The translations under genes and the position numbers were made by a program. 45,417 bases of DNA from a virus (Duplodnaviria > Heunggongvirae > Uroviricota > Caudoviricetes): IMG/VR virus record IMGVR_UViG_2706794697_000014; one strand, 5' to 3'. Positions 25,361 through 29,978 of the stretch are shown piece after piece (position 1 is the first letter of the stretch; every line of letters begins with the position of its first letter). Under the pieces are notes generated by a model that was not told the origin of the DNA, did not search any database, and saw only the letters and a program-made list of their open reading frames with translations.

Positions 25361-25578
25361 CAGAACCTCGCCAGCCGGTACCCGGGATGCCCCCGTCGTC
25401 GTGTAATCAGAGCCGCAAGGCGGCGCTCCCACTCCTGCCGTCCCTGCCGGATCTCAGATAAGTTTTCCATGGTCATCTGCTGACCATTAAAGGTGACGGA
25501 TTTTCCGTCCAGCACCGCCATTTCAGCTTCCGTATAACGCTGAATCATGGCTTCAATATCATTCTGGTTCATAACCAT
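25360..25578 (-). CDS. gpW-like head-tail connector / head completion protein
   Basis: 72-aa ORF between terminase large subunit and portal, position and size as lambda W. Confidence 0.5.
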   Translation of the reverse strand: MVMNQNDIEAMIQRYTEAEMAVLDGKSVTFNGQQMTMENLSEIRQGRQEWERRLAALITRRRGHPGYRLARF

Positions 25579-27671
25579 CCTCCGGAAGTCAGCCAGGGGT
25601 TAACATCGTCAGTTACTGTTTTCTTCCGTTTTTGTTTTTTAACAGGCGTGGATACCGGTTCCGGTGAGGGTGACGGTTCGGTACTGTCCGGGACACACTC
25701 CAGCCAGGTTTCCCGGCTCGCCCACTCCGGTGCATCCGGCCAGCGGATCTTTTCGTATCCATGCAGAATGACCAGAGCCTCGGCATACACCATCAGGTCA
25801 AAAGCTTCGTTGGCACCGCGACCCGGCTTACTCCATTTCCCGTCACTGCTCCGCTCTTCATACGTCAGTTCGTCGTAAAACCAGCTCCCCAGCCAGTCAG
25901 GGAAATGCACATAGCCGGGACCTGGCGAGTCACGCCATAACGCGTTATTCACCCGGTCTTTCAGTGCATCCGTCTGAAGAAGCCAGAGCGGCACATCACC
26001 TGCGGCCTGCGCCCGTCGGCCCGTTCGTCCGGTGTTATCAGGGAATGTACGGGTGATCAGTTTTGCGCGCCGGATGCTGTCGCCCTTAAACAGGTAAATA
26101 CGTTTACCAAGGCCATCACGACGGCAACGACGCCAGAATTTATAGGCATTATCAGTGACCCCGTCTTCACCGCCGGAGTCCACCGCCATTGCCATCAGTC
26201 GCATTTGTTGAGAAGGATCGGAGGCCAGCGGCCAGCTTTTATGAAAAACATCCGTCAGCAGGACATCCCAGTCTTCCGGATAGCTGGCCGGATCAATTCG
26301 CTGGCTCTCCCCGTCGCTGTCACCGCGCAATGACTGCGTGATGTTGTAACGATCAATAATCCAGCGTTCGCCACGGCTGCCATAGCCCGTTACCTGAACC
26401 ACAAAACGGCGATGACGTCCCGCCTGCACATCCACTGTCGCCACAAGGAAATTAACGCCATCCGGCACACTGCGGGAAGGAACTGGCTCTGCCCGCTGCT
26501 CAAGCAGTTCACTTTTTCGTTGCTCCATGCTGGCGCGGGGAAGATAAGGTAATCCCCAGTCGGTATTGATAACCGTCTTGAGTGTTTCTTCACTTCCGGT
26601 TGTCTCGTATTCCTGTTCTGCAGTAAGCAGTTTGTAAACGAGTTGCGAGAGTGTCTGGTAAGCAGCTGCCGGACCCTCCATCCAGAATGACGCAATACGT
26701 GAGCGTCGGGGATCACCATAACGACTGCCATCCGCATTGATGGATTCACCATCCCGCAACCAGACCCCACGTCCGTTCAGCTCACGTTTGTGTTCAGGCA
26801 TAATCCGTCCTGAACAGGAAGGACACTGAATATAAGCCGCCTCACTTGCCAGCACGGGATCGGCAATATCACGGAAACCAGCAACCACATCGCCGCAGGG
26901 CTGAAAATACTCACCACAGTGTGGACAGGGCCAGTACCAGCGACGGCGATCGCCACGGTTATAGAGCGACAGTATCCCCGTGGTTGGTGGAGCCTCATGC
27001 GGTGAAGTCCGTCGCCATTTCACATCCTTCACATCCCTGCCGGGGGAACTCTCCACAAGCGTCATACCACTGGACATAAATGTTGTGGTACGTTTTGAGG
27101 CAAGAGAGAAAGCATCCCCCTCGCCATCAATATCTTCCGGAAAACGGTCATAATCCGTCAGCGCGACGCATTTATAATCTGATGAGGACATGATATTGAC
27201 TGACGGCCAGCCGATTTTCAGGTAGTTACCAGCAAGGAATGTTCTGTCATAAACGTTGTTGTCATTTTTGTTCGGACTCAGGCGACTGACCACTTCCGGG
27301 CTGACGCGAAACGTTCTGGCGAGTCGTTTTTTGGAGTGTTCGCGGGCTTTTTCCTCCGTCATCTGAATGATCAGCATATCAGCAGGATCGCAAATCACGT
27401 TGTAAATCACCCAGCCGTCAATCAGGCCGATAGTCTTGCCGGTTCGTGCCGGGCCAACAAATATCACTGCGTCGTATTCACGCGAGGCCAGGCAGTTCAT
27501 CGGCTCAATAACATACGGTGCCACCAGCGGATCCCACGGGACTGAGTTCCCTGCCCCCATGGGCACCCGCATATACTGAGCAACGGCATCAGCAACCCGC
27601 ATTCGTCTCGGTGCGCGAAGGATATAACCTGAATCGGTTCGTGCTGCCTTTGCGGTTTCCTGATTCAGCAT
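25569..27671 (-). CDS. terminase large subunit
   Basis: 700-aa ORF with Walker A-like VGPARTGKT and C-terminal nuclease region; immediately follows small subunit (TAATG overlap). Confidence 0.85.
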   Translation of the reverse strand: MLNQETAKAARTDSGYILRAPRRMRVADAVAQYMRVPMGAGNSVPWDPLVAPYVIEPMNCLASREYDAVIFVGPARTGKTIGLIDGWVIYNVICDPADMLIIQMTEEKAREHSKKRLARTFRVSPEVVSRLSPNKNDNNVYDRTFLAGNYLKIGWPSVNIMSSSDYKCVALTDYDRFPEDIDGEGDAFSLASKRTTTFMSSGMTLVESSPGRDVKDVKWRRTSPHEAPPTTGILSLYNRGDRRRWYWPCPHCGEYFQPCGDVVAGFRDIADPVLASEAAYIQCPSCSGRIMPEHKRELNGRGVWLRDGESINADGSRYGDPRRSRIASFWMEGPAAAYQTLSQLVYKLLTAEQEYETTGSEETLKTVINTDWGLPYLPRASMEQRKSELLEQRAEPVPSRSVPDGVNFLVATVDVQAGRHRRFVVQVTGYGSRGERWIIDRYNITQSLRGDSDGESQRIDPASYPEDWDVLLTDVFHKSWPLASDPSQQMRLMAMAVDSGGEDGVTDNAYKFWRRCRRDGLGKRIYLFKGDSIRRAKLITRTFPDNTGRTGRRAQAAGDVPLWLLQTDALKDRVNNALWRDSPGPGYVHFPDWLGSWFYDELTYEERSSDGKWSKPGRGANEAFDLMVYAEALVILHGYEKIRWPDAPEWASRETWLECVPDSTEPSPSPEPVSTPVKKQKRKKTVTDDVNPWLTSGGWL

Positions 27672-28165
27672 TACTCCTCCTGCTGTAATTCCTCCTCATC
27701 ATCCGCACCTGCTTCAGTCACCCGCAGGGCTATCTGATCGCGCAGATCATCAATAATGGACTGAACACGGCTCACAGCGGCAGGCTGCAGACCGCAGTCA
27801 CGTTCCAGAATATCCGGTAATGTCTCCAGCACCTGCACGACCGCTTTTGCCCAGATGGCAAACTCCCGTCTGACATCACTGGCCGGAATGAGTTGTGCCG
27901 TTTCCTGTTCGAACTTAAGACGCTCACGTTCAGACTGATACCAGGCTTTGCGCTCATGCGCGTCCATTTCGCCTTCTGCAACCGGCGGTGGCAATGCCAG
28001 AAATGCCGACACAATATCAACCACCCGATAAAGCTTGAGGTTGCTTTCATGCCCCCCTGCAACGGGTAGATTTTGCAGCCTTGCCGCAGCAGTCTGGCGA
28101 TGTACACCTGACAGTGCCGCCAGTTGACTGATATTCAGCGTCAGATTTTTTAACTCTCGATCCAT
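27671..28165 (-). CDS. terminase small subunit
   Basis: 164-aa ORF with N-terminal HTH (ISQLAALSGVHRQTAAARL), acidic C-terminus, directly upstream of large subunit. Confidence 0.6.
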   Translation of the reverse strand: MDRELKNLTLNISQLAALSGVHRQTAAARLQNLPVAGGHESNLKLYRVVDIVSAFLALPPPVAEGEMDAHERKAWYQSERERLKFEQETAQLIPASDVRREFAIWAKAVVQVLETLPDILERDCGLQPAAVSRVQSIIDDLRDQIALRVTEAGADDEEELQQEE

Positions 28166-28980
28166 ACCCGCTCCAGAATGTTTTAAACATGCATCTCGCG
28201 AACAACTTTAGGCAAACGGTGTTAGTGATGAACAAAAAACAATCAAAATCGACACCATAAAAACAAAACCACTGTAATATCAATCTATTACAGTGGTGGT
28301 GATGACGAATGAAATTTCAAAAACTAGCCTTTTTCCGCGACGCTCCCGCCCCGTGGCAGGCCACTCCACCGGGAGGACCCGTCAGCCTGACAGACATGAC
28401 GAACGTCTGATACAGCGCCTTGCATGAATGGCATCGGGATAATCCAGAAAGGAATAGCATCGTGCCCACAAGAATCTGTGTGAGTATCCTGTTTCTTCCA
28501 CCCCCGCACAGGACTGGCGAGCATGAGGGACAAACCCGCGAACCATAAACGCGGTAAAAACCCGGTGTGCATCGTTTTTGATTATTCCCGCACACTCTCG
28601 CAGAAGGAGTTCCCCGTCGGGCTACGGTCTCTGTTAATACGGGAATACGGCGACGATACAGCGCATGATGTGTCAGGCTTGAATACCTTTATCCGTTAAA
28701 AGGGATATCAGTTAAGTTATCCCGTGTAGGGTATAAGCCATTATCAAAGCCACTCTGTAGGGAGTGGCTTTTGTAATGGCAATAAAAAGCCCCGCGAATG
28801 CGAGGCTAAATCCAGGTATTTTTAATGACTGGCTCTTATTTCAACGCAGCCCCTTACCGCGCGCCAGATGCTCAACTTCAAGCATCAGCAATGAGATGTT
28901 TAATCTGGATTCACTCCAGAAGTGATCACCACCCTGTCTACAGAGCCAAATGTGAAGGATGATGAGTAAAATTATCGCTA

Positions 28981-29463
28981 TCATCGAAGGCATTGCGTCC
29001 TGATATATTCCTGAAGCGTTCTCAGTGCTGTCTGGTCTCTGATGATTCCGTCCCGGATACCGAGAACGTTTCGTCCAGCAACTGGAGAGAGTTCGACGGT
29101 GGCATCATTGCCCATGCCGGAGGCGCTGGAGGTTTCGGCTGAGGATGGCACAGAGCATTTTCCTTTGACGAGCACCCGACCACCATTATCAAGCTTGCGC
29201 CGAAGAGCATCATTTTCAGCTTTCGCATCAGCCAACTCCTTCGTGTATTTAGCATCGAGTACATCAGCAGCACGCTGGCGTTGCTGCATGTCAGTAATGG
29301 TGGCGGTCGCCTGCTTCAGCTCACTGACTTTTTTATCACGCTGTTCTTTGTAGGCGATGGCGTTATCACGGTAATGATTGACCGCCCACGACAGGCAGAC
29401 GATGATGCAGATAACCAGAGCATAAATAATCGCGGCGACTCTGCTCACTGATCTATCCCCCAA
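28981..29463 (-). CDS. Rz: spanin Rz (i-spanin)
   Basis: 160-aa ORF with N-terminal TM anchor and coiled-coil, downstream of endolysin; contains embedded +1 frame ORF. Confidence 0.7.
29022..29228 (-). CDS. Rz1: spanin Rz1 (o-spanin lipoprotein) embedded in Rz
   Basis: [21 protein letters not shown] lipobox, Pro-rich, wholly inside Rz in another frame. Confidence 0.55.
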
Positions 29464-29978
29464 CAGGCTAATGCGCTTTCCTGGTCACGACGAATAACCT
29501 GTCCATAGCAGTTATTTGAACGTATGCGGCAATCGCGCCCACCATCTTTTATCCACCAGCGAATCGCCTCGCATGCACCTTTACGATCACCAGCATTCAG
29601 CCGCTTATAAAACGTCGACGGAAAACACTTACCGGGGCCAATGTTATAGGGACAAAATGACGCGATACCCGCTTTTTGTGGCTCGGTCAGTGGTACTTTA
29701 ATATTGCGCTCCACCCATGCCAGCGCCTTATCACGCTCAATGGCGTTGACCTGGTCGCATTTTTCCTTCGACAGTTTCATACCGGGAAAAACGGGTTTTC
29801 CATCCACCATCGTGGCACCCCGACAGATGGTCCAGATGCCGGACCCATCGCGGTATGCCGTTGTGTGGTTACCTTCTTTTTCATCCAGAAACTGGTCGAG
29901 AATATCAGGCGCGGGCGCACCGACGGCAATCAGTGCCAGAACGGCAGCCGACAGGCCGTATCTGATTTTTGCGTTCAT
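29445..29978 (-). CDS. R: SAR endolysin (T4-lysozyme-like, GH24)
   Basis: N-terminal weakly hydrophobic [15 protein letters not shown] segment; catalytic E-x8-D-x5-T pattern in [18 protein letters not shown]. Confidence 0.8.

Follow-up and report, generated by a model that had tools for sequence, protein, structure and literature searches.

A probable lambda-type cos site with a variable palindrome over a predicted IHF core in a Gifsy-2/mEp460-type prophage

The stretch of viral DNA analyzed here (45,417 nucleotides, hereafter the window) contains an ORF-poor region at positions 28166–28980, the left 220 bp of which (28166–28385) form, with a probability of about 85%, the cos site of a lambda-like prophage of the Gifsy-2/mEp460 type. 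On the minus strand this site would run in the order cosQ, cosN, I2-like bend, cosB and TerS, with IHF acting at a predicted site, TerL nicking cosN to leave 12-nt 5′ ends, and a conspicuous palindrome that is incidental to the process; the remainder of the region would be a non-coding late spacer closing in a hairpin and a terminator (Table 1). Taken together, sequence homology, the positions of the features, their conservation and the ends of database records are best explained in this way, and from them we predict that IHF binds, where exactly the strands are nicked and that the terminators are active. The region is an ordinary lambda-type cos, a well-understood kind of phage feature in an E. 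coli prophage. The initial annotation had proposed that a packaging site, either cos or pac, lies here; its presence is strongly supported by the mapping of cosQ, cosN and cosB and by three virion-derived records that break at the predicted cosN, and the choice can be sharpened to a lambda-type cos rather than a pac site. To our knowledge, the cos of the mEp460/Ayreon-type E. coli lineage has not been characterized experimentally.

Table 1. Features assigned in and around positions 28166–28980 of the window.
Feature	Position	Strand	Basis and remarks
TerL, gpA-type	25569–27671		Pfam PF05876 and PF20454 (GpA_ATPase and GpA_nuclease domains)
TerS, small terminase, 164 aa, DUF1441, Gifsy-2/mEp460 type	27671–28165	-	Pfam PF07278 (2.7e-41); phrog_141 "terminase small subunit" (7e-74); marks left border of cos
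cosB, segment for terminase recognition, from cosN to TerS start codon	28166–28339	-	Same position as lambda cosB
Predicted IHF site, I1 analogue	28254–28297	+	A-tract 28254–28266; core WATCAANNNNTTR = TATCAATCTATTA at 28278–28290
12-bp palindrome, 6-nt spacer	28268–28297		Centred on IHF core; one haplotype of a hypervariable tract
I2-like A/T-tract, AAAAAGGCTAGTTTTTGAAATTTCATTCGTCAT	28302–28334	-	bp 18–50 of left end; aligns with lambda I2 GTTTTCGCTATTTATGAAAATTTTCC
cosN, predicted 12-nt 5′ cohesive end GGGCGGGAGCGT	28340–28351	-	Conserved flanking CG dinucleotides (caCG/.../CGcgg)
cosQ, GGGTCCT	28374–28380	-	7-mer identical to lambda's in aligned block ACGGGTCCT..CCGGTG (lambda 48471–48487)
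Variable non-coding spacer upstream of cosQ	28386–28486		pi 0.053
Widely shared non-coding module	28487–28736		Holds dubious 58-aa ORF 28523–28699 (+)
19-bp imperfect palindrome, core 28748–28769	28737–28780		Arms 28737–28755 and 28762–28780, 89% complementary
Canonical late-sense intrinsic terminator, AGCCTCGCATTCGCGGGGCT then TTTTT	28783–28807 (hairpin 28788–28807)	-	Terminator scan; fold -15.4 kcal/mol
50-aa late-strand ORF	28841–28993	-	phrog_11822 (8.6e-38); travels with lysis cassette, overlaps Rz end; annotated in mEp460, Ayreon and epsilon34 (gp67)

The region sits between the genes for a DUF1441 small terminase and a gpA-type large terminase on one side and Rz on the other. As in lambda-like cos regions, the gpA-type TerL gene is adjacent and the small terminase gene lies directly downstream of cos. 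TerS gave no Pfam Nu1 match and a PDB sequence search returned no relative, while a weak HTH_30 match marks an HTH-like segment at its N-terminus. Alignment of the window with lambda revealed the shared string ACGGGTCCT..CCGGTG..ACG/GGGCGG......T/CGCGG (slashes marking the nicks), which contains the cosQ heptamer; lambda cosQ is taken here to be 48473–48479. The distance from cosQ to the predicted top-strand nick is 22 nt in the window and 23 nt in lambda, within the expected spacing of ~20–25 bp, and many DUF1441-type cos sites, as well as Hafnia phage yong2, have GGGTCCT at an equal offset. Across 28319–28381, prophages of Klebsiella, Enterobacter, Serratia and others retain 77–87% identity, with TerS there only 55–60% identical.

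In lambda-like phages the cohesive ends are variable at positions 7–12, the flanking CG dinucleotides and the 7-bp cosQ are highly conserved, and the Gifsy-1 end differs from that of lambda at positions 8, 9 and 11 (PMC4669245). By these published features, the window has a cosN at 28335–28356 (caCG/GGGCGGGAGCGT/CGcgg), with CG at both nicks and variation confined to positions 7–12. In a direct alignment with lambda (ACGGGGCGGCGACCTCGCGG), 16/20 positions match, and the cohesive end fits the published pattern of variation because positions 1–6 and the CG flanks are kept and the differences fall at positions 7, 8, 9 and 11. The predicted cosN coincides exactly with the break point of three virion-derived GenBank records (mEp460_4F5, Ayreon and Hafnia phage yong2): the mEp460_4F5 record starts with CCACGGGGCGGG and ends with ..GGCCTG, a chimeric insert in the Ayreon record replaces the cohesive end exactly, and the yong2 record begins with CGCGG, directly after the homologous overhang. 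The nick is placed by analogy with lambda and the mEp460_4F5 record starts 4 nt upstream of that position, so that the exact overhang (12 nt, 28340–28351) is to be read as a prediction. These unique ends in records of related virions, together with the gpA-type TerL and a cosQ and cosN clearly homologous to those of lambda, leave a pac site for headful packaging, a choice that the initial annotation had kept open and for which nothing specific speaks, extremely improbable.

From base 1 of the cohesive end to the TerS ATG the distance is 186 bp here, compared with 190 bp in lambda. Lambda I2 occupies bp 18–50 and provides a static bend needed for packaging (PMC4856287); the I2-like segment of the window is nearly invariant among relatives. 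Relatives of a second type (group 2, the window belonging to group 1) are 98% identical in TerS codons 59–164 and 90% identical from cosQ to cosN, with TerS codons 1–58 and cosB only 57–74% identical, and this joint divergence of cosB and the TerS N-terminal domain suggests that cosB acts as a specificity element. A check for terminase binding motifs, as had been proposed for the region, yielded less: a search of cosB for direct and inverted repeats that might represent R sites (TerS binding elements) returned nothing significant besides the palindrome and no definable R sites. As weak leads for such elements we note only TCATCAC (28299–28305 and 28225–28231) and GTGTCGA (28249–28255).

The companion proposal, to look for IHF motifs, was on target, since the centre of the palindrome is a perfect match (TATCAATCTATTA) to the IHF consensus WATCAANNNNTTR, preceded by an A/T-rich tract. 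The window as a whole contains four consensus matches, where 1.9 would be expected. In 39/39 near-identical relatives the nine bases specified by the consensus are invariant, with a pi of 0.32 at its NNNN positions. Across genera, 12/17 DUF1441-type cos sites carry an IHF match with ≤1 mismatch in the same orientation, starting at bp 62–63 from cosN, and no other match of that quality occurs in those cosB segments; the remaining 5/17 have no IHF match with ≤1 mismatch. The consensus in the window covers bp 62–74, and lambda I1 spans bp 65–90, between R3 and R2 (PMC4856287; PMC4669245). The core at 28278–28290 and its A-tract are therefore predicted to be an IHF site at the position of lambda I1. 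A promoter scan placed its lone match inside the same tract, on the minus strand (28283–28254, 9/12).

The 12-bp palindrome described in the initial annotation is real. Its arms ACCACTGTAATA and TATTACAGTGGT (28268–28279 and 28286–28297, separated by 6 nt) are 100% complementary and form the longest perfect stem-loop inverted repeat within the 45-kb window; an arm length of 12 bp was reached in 1/60 simulations of the entire window under a first-order Markov model, and the predicted fold has an energy of -19.4 kcal/mol (z = -4.8). The tract is highly variable, with 27 haplotypes among 37 close relatives and 26 among a wider set of 39, and the perfect palindrome occurs in only 4 sequences of the close-relative set. 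Specifically, one relative (L009) has a TerS that is 100% identical and yet pairs at only 5/12 positions, and in group 2 relatives the palindrome is absent. Among the 39 relatives, pi reached 0.125 in the palindrome tract compared with 0.013 at TerS third codon positions, and the arms together with the consensus NNNN are ~10-fold more variable than synonymous sites. Co-variation of the two arms was not detected in permutation tests (P = 0.17 for Watson-Crick pairs, 0.11 with G-U pairs included), and co-variation as a sign of a functional hairpin was rejected on the former value. The flanks of the IHF core are under weak constraint, and the palindrome is the form that they take in the window's prophage rather than an element conserved for recognition or cleavage. 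Group 1 nonetheless had a clearly palindromic ancestral tract, with a mean of 9.4/12 Watson-Crick pairs, which the IHF model leaves unexplained.

Other roles for the palindrome were considered. It might act as an intrinsic terminator in the late sense, formed by its 12-bp stem and the UUUUGUUUUUAU that follows and placed immediately before the terminase genes. In the lysogen such a terminator would shield these genes from read-through transcription, Q-modified polymerase would override it, and an IHF site could exist alongside. The palindrome is flagged on the minus strand by the terminator scan, combines a U-tract with the stable hairpin described above, keeps ~10.7/12 Watson-Crick or G-U pairs in most group 1 variants and shows two apparent compensatory changes (pair 3, C-G to T-A; pair 4, A-T to G-C). 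However, pairing within a sequence was no better than with shuffled arms in the permutation tests, so that maintenance of structure was not seen, and the hairpin is lost in L009, despite its identical TerS, and in group 2. In addition, the stem has 4 G-C pairs only, the apparent U-tract is the A-tract expected of a strong IHF site, and a canonical terminator and a 19-bp hairpin already lie upstream at 28737–28807, all of which makes a terminator here quite unlikely. The perfect two-fold symmetry of the arms at the R3/I1 position of cosB would also suit recognition by a dimeric DNA-binding protein, whether TerS, with its HTH-like segment, or another phage regulator, and lambda TerS binds as a winged HTH dimer (PMC4669245). 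Against this, 27 arm haplotypes, one with 5/12 pairs, occur in phages with identical or 99–100% identical TerS, and the arm positions are the most variable of the whole 1.35-kb alignment, the opposite of what is expected for a specificity determinant; we regard such a role as very improbable.

The palindromic cosB IHF tract (28254–28297) could instead be a genuinely hypermutable or diversifying element in which the IHF bases are fixed, an idea that we consider unlikely. Diversity over this tract is ~10-fold that of synonymous sites and ~3-fold that of the I1 tracts that occupy this position without a palindrome in group 2 relatives and lambda-type prophages, and both hairpins of the region (the palindrome and 28737–28780) are diversity peaks of the 1.35-kb alignment in otherwise near-identical DNA. 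If the idea held, the diversity could stem from mutagenesis driven by hairpins or quasi-palindromes where a protein bends the DNA or, alternatively, from selection that retunes the efficiency of packaging initiation or favours escape from cos-hijacking satellites. The coincidence of hairpins and diversity peaks resembles the quasi-palindrome (template-switch) mutation hot spots of E. coli; unlike at those hot spots, the arms of the cosB palindrome drift apart and are not corrected towards each other.

At the other end of the region, the plus-strand hairpin AGCCACTC-tgtagg-GAGTGGCT (28748–28769) reported in the initial annotation was recovered; the TTTT said to follow it is slightly generous, since three T follow the 8-bp stem and a fourth is obtained only if the last T of the stem is counted. 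This hairpin is the core of a longer imperfect palindrome (28737–28780) with fold energies of -30.1 (plus strand) and -26.8 kcal/mol (minus strand) and z about -7.8. Pairing is kept with three alternative stems (AGCCACTC/GAGTGGCT, AGCCCA/TGGGCT and GAGACCA/TGGTCTC), and in two relatives (L097 and L101) two adjacent substitutions turn the element into a perfect 20-bp palindrome. The sequence beyond 28780 varies with context, recombination breakpoints lie at 28755 and 28780, and the element is annotated as a terminator in phage Ayreon; at the place homologous to 28783–28807, a Rho-independent terminator is annotated in epsilon34. Both 28737–28780 and 28788–28807 display the stable hairpin, T-run and structure conserved at the end of a unit that characterize Rho-independent terminators, the T-runs beside the inner stem of the former being short (3–4 T). 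The element at 28737–28780 is a structure-conserved hairpin at a mosaic junction and probably works as a terminator in both directions or as an insulator.

With the 815-bp region as query, 4350/5426 complete E. coli genomes matched over at least some part of it, and 768 E. coli genomes carry the region in full. The module at 28487–28736, which in lambda-Nu1-type prophages lies directly 3′ of the plus-strand gene ylcI, is responsible for most of the partial matches; no ylcI remnant was found in a search of the window. The statement that the region holds no credible ORF is essentially right for 28166–28840 and fails at the right edge, which overlaps a probably real 50-aa ORF. PGAP annotates a 58-aa plus-strand ORF (28523–28699), and other annotators an 82–94-aa minus-strand ORF across cosN. 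Variable sites at the three codon positions were distributed 18:14:15 in the former and 13:14:18 in the latter, compared with a clear third-position excess in the control genes TerS (4:3:11) and the 50-aa ORF (2:3:7). The 58-aa ORF lacks the third-position excess of a protein-coding gene, is truncated in 5/39 relatives and is frameshifted in DLP12, 13081 and the second copy in L131 (L131b). The minus-strand ORF 28317–28595, a "putative late gene regulator" in Ayreon, was rejected since it spans both cosQ and cosN, is without codon bias and shrinks to 8–9 aa in 9/39 relatives. Pfam, NCBIfam and PHROG searches with the small ORFs of the region gave two matches only, phrog_11822 with the 50-aa ORF and, with the minus-strand ORF, a spurious one of 14 residues, the ORFs of the spacer at 28386–28486 giving no family match. 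A tRNA/tmRNA search of the region was negative. The prophage sRNAs Pas and AgvB were discarded as candidates, the literature placing their genes upstream of the holin gene and not in this region.

A small plus-strand RNA, which the initial annotation named as a possibility, is conceivable though doubtful: 28487–28780 would then be transcribed on the plus strand up to the hairpin, as a moron-like gene of 58 aa, a ncRNA or a ylcI-type 3′ UTR remnant, and would run opposite to the late genes, as lambda bor does. The hairpin is invariably found at the right boundary of the module, irrespective of the sequence that follows, and keeps its pairing through compensatory variants, which fits a plus-sense 3′ terminator, and the position of the module immediately 3′ of ylcI in lambda-type prophages is also consistent with a transcribed unit. 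The 58-aa ORF is annotated by PGAP and others, falls into 73 protein clusters with the conserved core CIVFDYSRTL.QKEFPVGLRS and has one variant that resembles a compensated frameshift (QKEFPVG versus QRSLPVG). On the other hand, its even spread of variable sites, its breakage in the elements and relatives listed above and its lack of a Pfam, NCBIfam or PHROG family argue against a gene, and the sigma-70 promoter scan found no match on the plus strand. The folding energy of the module is not unusual (z = 0 to 0.9), and RNA structure analysis of 28487–28700 on both strands gave no convincing consensus fold. A scan of 27600–29600 against Rfam 15 (E ≤ 1) produced no match at gathering score, the best matches (mir-458, 24.5 bits; STnc560, 18.7 bits) being far below gathering scores and reflecting hairpins only. 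The hairpin itself is equally stable on the late (minus) strand, where it stands beside a canonical late-sense terminator.

Under the preferred cos reading, the N-terminal DNA-binding domain of TerS would bind cosB during lytic growth, and host IHF would bind the perfect consensus and its A-tract, bending the DNA as at lambda I1. TerL would then nick cosN to expose the 12-nt 5′ cohesive ends, and cosQ would be required for finishing packaging at the next cos. The remaining ~600 bp would serve as a non-coding late-operon spacer of shuffled modules, in which the 19-bp hairpin and the late-sense terminator may close the lysis cassette (Rz and the 50-aa ORF), with Q-modified RNA polymerase, by analogy with lambda late transcription, reading through both terminators into the terminase genes.

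In practical terms, exact predictions of genome ends and of packaging signals are now available for a common E. coli prophage family (mEp460/Ayreon type, DUF1441 small terminase) whose public phage records have arbitrary start points or show artefacts of assembly at cos. The specificity cassettes of groups 1 and 2 also offer a ready natural experiment on how a DUF1441 TerS reads cosB. Conceptually there is little new, the anatomy being that of lambda and the sole curiosity being the variable palindromic IHF tract together with the junction hairpin.

Compared with lambda cos (cosQ, cosN, I2 and cosB with R3, I1, R2 and R1), the window shares the order and spacing of subsites, the cosQ heptamer, the CG-flanked cosN, the I2-like A/T-tract and the gpA-type TerL. 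It differs in having a DUF1441 rather than a Nu1-family TerS, in the absence of the lambda R-site sequences from its cosB and in a perfect IHF consensus within a palindrome, whereas lambda I1 is not palindromic and the best match seen in it by eye has two mismatches. The arrangement of the predicted IHF site (AAAACAAAA, 9 bp, TATCAATCTATTA) is like that of the high-affinity site H′ of lambda attP, which we take to consist of an A-tract, about 8–9 bp and then WATCAANNNNTTR. The same DUF1441 TerS family occurs in the lambdoid phages Gifsy-1, Gifsy-2, Fels-1, mEp460, mEp213, the cdtI-phage and some Stx2a phages, the window TerS being 99–100% identical to those of mEp460 and Ayreon and 47.5% identical to that of Gifsy-2. 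The reported cohesive end of Gifsy-1 resembles that of the window. Gifsy-2 shares the CGCGG..GGCT..TTTTTGA block after cosN but has another sequence (14 nt) between the ACG and CGCGG landmarks, and its IHF-like match has one mismatch and the opposite orientation. Finally, the pattern seen between group 1, with the window, and group 2, in which cosQ, cosN and the C-terminal two-thirds of TerS are shared and cosB and TerS residues 1–58 differ, matches that of lambda/21 hybrids (PMC4669245), which suggests that the two groups differ in packaging specificity through the same cassette exchange as between lambda and phage 21.

The 815-bp region at 28166-28980 is an ordinary lambda-type cos region of a lambdoid E. 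coli prophage whose late genes are all carried on the minus strand. The initial annotation had placed a packaging site (cos or pac) here, and the region does contain one, a cos, with lambda-homologous cosQ and cosN and with three virion-derived records interrupted in it. Read on the late strand, the site runs ...gACGGGTCCTcccggtggagtggcctgccaCG / GGGCGGGAGCGT / CGcggaaaaaggctagtttttgaaatttc..., and its counterpart in an alignment to lambda's joined ends is ACGGGTCCTttccggtgatccgacaggttaCG / GGGCGGCGACCT / CGcgggttttcgctatttatgaaaatttt. The predicted cohesive end differs from that of lambda at positions 7, 8, 9 and 11, and the cosN-to-ATG distance is 186 bp as compared with 190 bp in lambda. 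According to Feiss and colleagues (PMC4669245), positions 7-12 are the variable ones in lambda-like cohesive ends (Gifsy-1 differing at 8, 9 and 11), and both the 7-bp cosQ and the CG dinucleotides beside the nicks are conserved; the cosN and cosQ of the window agree with every one of these patterns. Three virion-derived records break exactly at the predicted cosN. The mEp460_4F5 record (LR595868; L004/L005) starts with CCACGGGGCGGG and ends in GGCCTG, with 3 nt of the overhang missing; in the Ayreon record (MF807953, L001 locus 150-299), a 150-nt chimeric insert with a TerS (small terminase) fragment replaces the overhang; and the Hafnia phage yong2 record starts with CGCGG directly after the homologous overhang, GGGTCCT lying 24 nt before. 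The Ayreon insert and the 3-nt loss in mEp460_4F5 are assembly artefacts in public records. In prophages from other genera, with a TerS of only 55-60% identity, the block 28319-28381 is still 77-87% identical. The cos assignment is secure, and we infer the exact nick positions by analogy with lambda. The mEp460 and Ayreon records have an arbitrary start 26 nt upstream of TerS, and a minus-strand ORF annotated in both was rejected as a gene, since it crosses cosQ and cosN and has no coding signature.

Features of the cos region and its flanks
Feature	Position	Strand	Remark
Large terminase	25569-27671	-	gpA-type
Small terminase TerS	27671-28165	-	DUF1441 at 2.7e-41, phrog_141
I2-like A/T-tract segment	28302-28334 (bp 18-50)	-	likeness to lambda I2
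Predicted 12-nt cohesive end (cosN)	28340-28351	-	alignment with lambda joined ends
cosQ GGGTCCT	28374-28380	-	heptamer identical to lambda
Variable spacer	28386-28486		region right of cosQ
~200-bp non-coding module	28487-28693		in most E. coli genomes
Canonical late-sense terminator	28788-28807	-	adjoins hairpin 28737-28780
50-aa hydrophobic ORF	28841-28993	-	phrog_11822; overlaps Rz stop
Rz spanin	28981-29463	-	flank opposite terminase genes

Among phages, mEp460, Ayreon and vB_EcoS-569R4 come closest. The 815-bp region has a 100% identical copy in the chromosome of strain CDF6, and 4350 of 5426 complete E. coli genomes match parts of it. The window also contains a masked stretch (762 N, from 12087) in its tail-gene region.

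Relatives with another cosB (group 2, such as L011) have a TerS sharing ~60% aa identity with that of the window over residues 1-58 and 99% over residues 59-164, with DNA identities of 57-74% in cosB, 90% in cosQ-cosN and 98% in TerS codons 59-164. The N-terminal 58 residues and cosB are jointly exchanged between the window (27992-28311) and L011 with 13 other group 2 loci, a swap of the lambda/21 type, in which the cassette comprises cosB and the TerS DNA-binding domain (PMC4669245). This independently marks 28166 to ~28311 as the recognition segment and implies two predicted packaging specificities inside one phage lineage. A repeat search of cosB gave no definable R sites (the TerS binding sites of lambda). 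The weak leads were TCATCAC at 28299-28305 and 28225-28231 and GTGTCGA at 28249-28255, favoured because the matching distal position is occupied by an inverted repeat in Gifsy-2 and group 2. A palindrome of 13 bp (late strand ATGTTTAAAACAT, 28176-28188) precedes the TerS start codon by 11-23 nt; it does not vary in group 1, the close relatives sharing the window's cosB type, and is broken in group 2.

The 12-bp perfect palindrome reported initially in cosB lies exactly at 28268-28297 (arms 28268-28279 and 28286-28297, 6-nt spacer). No other perfect stem-loop repeat of the window reaches its length, which was matched in only 1 of 60 whole-window Markov simulations. The suggested search for IHF motifs found a perfect consensus, TATCAATCTATTA, at the centre of the palindrome (28278-28290, plus strand), with an A-tract 9 bp upstream. 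Counted from the left end, the predicted IHF core thus occupies bp 62-74, as compared with bp 65-90, between R3 and R2, for the lambda IHF site I1; lambda I2 is a static bend required for packaging (PMC4856287). Among 39 unique close relatives, the nine consensus-specified bases showed zero variation, with a pi of 0.32 at the four N positions and 15 of 30 palindrome positions segregating. Of 17 cos sites of the DUF1441 type, taken from Escherichia, Citrobacter, Phytobacter, Kosakonia, Klebsiella and Serratia, 12 had a match (≤1 mismatch, same orientation) starting at bp 62-63, and cosB held no such match at any other place. The arms formed 27 haplotypes in 37 relatives, the perfect form occurring in only four sequences, and arm co-variation was not seen, pairing within sequences being no better than with shuffled arms (P = 0.17). 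That the arms are a TerS specificity site is ruled out by these haplotypes, by the relative L009, with 5 of 12 arm pairs and a 100% identical TerS, and by the absence of the palindrome from group 2. A selected hairpin or terminator is not supported and is improbable, given the same pairing result and lack of conservation. The fixed IHF bases, position-fixed match and unconserved arms favour the IHF reading, so that the palindrome is a variant of a predicted IHF site and no packaging signal by itself.

Beyond the spacer, the module is found immediately 3' of the plus-strand gene ylcI in lambda-Nu1-type prophages. Tandem GAATACGG repeats and a pair of CCCGCACA copies lie within it; further copies of the module are in L007 (2498-2672), L154 (2501-2703) and, duplicated in one IMG/VR contig, L131 (1963-2257 and 3752-3927). 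Its RNA folding energy is not unusual and it has no Rfam match. PGAP calls a 58-aa ORF inside it, with no family match in Pfam, NCBIfam or PHROG and with many copies truncated or frameshifted; its variable sites by codon position are 18:14:15, against 4:3:11 in TerS and 2:3:7 in the 50-aa ORF. The latter, which also shows third-codon-position bias, is probably a real small membrane protein; it accompanies the lysis cassette in lambdoid and P22-like phages (epsilon34 gp67, Sf6 gene 65). The plus-strand terminator-like hairpin described initially is real at 28748-28769. It forms the inner part of a longer palindrome (28737-28780; 19 bp, 89% complementary), which folds at -30 kcal/mol on the plus and -27 kcal/mol on the minus strand. 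This longer hairpin always stands at the module end irrespective of the downstream sequence, keeps its pairing across three different stem sequences and is found in P22-like phages with no module beside it. The adjoining terminator is part of the lysis cassette (Rz and 50-aa ORF) and has a terminator annotation in epsilon34. Clusters of recombination breakpoints lie at 28487, 28693, 28755 and 28780. We read both hairpins as putative terminators or insulators at late-operon module junctions, which Q-modified polymerase would read through by analogy with lambda. A small plus-strand RNA ending at 28737-28780 is a less likely possibility; a promoter scan found none for it on the plus strand.

The 44-bp IHF tract is a diversity island: its pi is 0.12, where TerS third codon positions have 0.013 and flanking cosB has 0.01-0.02, and it takes 1.98 parsimony steps per site on a tree that gives 0.17-0.33 for other parts, figures drawn from related sequences and a tree with few sites behind it, homoplasy being inflated by recombination. 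Non-palindromic counterparts at the same position, group 2 and I1 of 67 lambda-type prophages alike, had a pi of only 0.038, so that the excess diversity goes with the palindrome. A second diversity peak coincides with the hairpin at 28737-28780. In L097 and L101, the part homologous to 28762-28780 has TGATAAT in place of TTGTAAT. These two adjacent substitutions make the imperfect 19-bp palindrome perfect over 20 bp (-36.2 kcal/mol), the kind of trace that quasi-palindrome template switching should leave. The hypervariability is most simply read as hairpin-associated mutagenesis, diversifying selection on the tract being a possible alternative. The interest is modest: a hypervariable quasi-palindrome within an otherwise ordinary cos region.

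Other phages have palindromes near cos of a kind absent from the window. Lambda (L157, 48450-48467) has a near-perfect one, GATGATAATCATTATCAC, just upstream of cosQ. DUF1441-type prophages of Phytobacter, Kosakonia, Buttiauxella and Atlantibacter have AATGATAATCATTATCATT or a variant of it ~50 nt before cosN, and in L013, L026, L030, L032, L033 and L036 this places it ~180-193 nt ahead of the TerS ATG. Both palindromes are Fur-box-like. Gifsy-2 and Fels-1 have a TerS of the same family as the window. The Gifsy-2 cos (L241 720-870) has the block CGCGG..GGCT..TTTTTGA in common with the window but, unlike it, has 14 nt between the landmarks ACG and CGCGG and an IHF-like match in the opposite orientation, distal to which lies a clear inverted repeat, GTGTCGAA..TTCGACAC.
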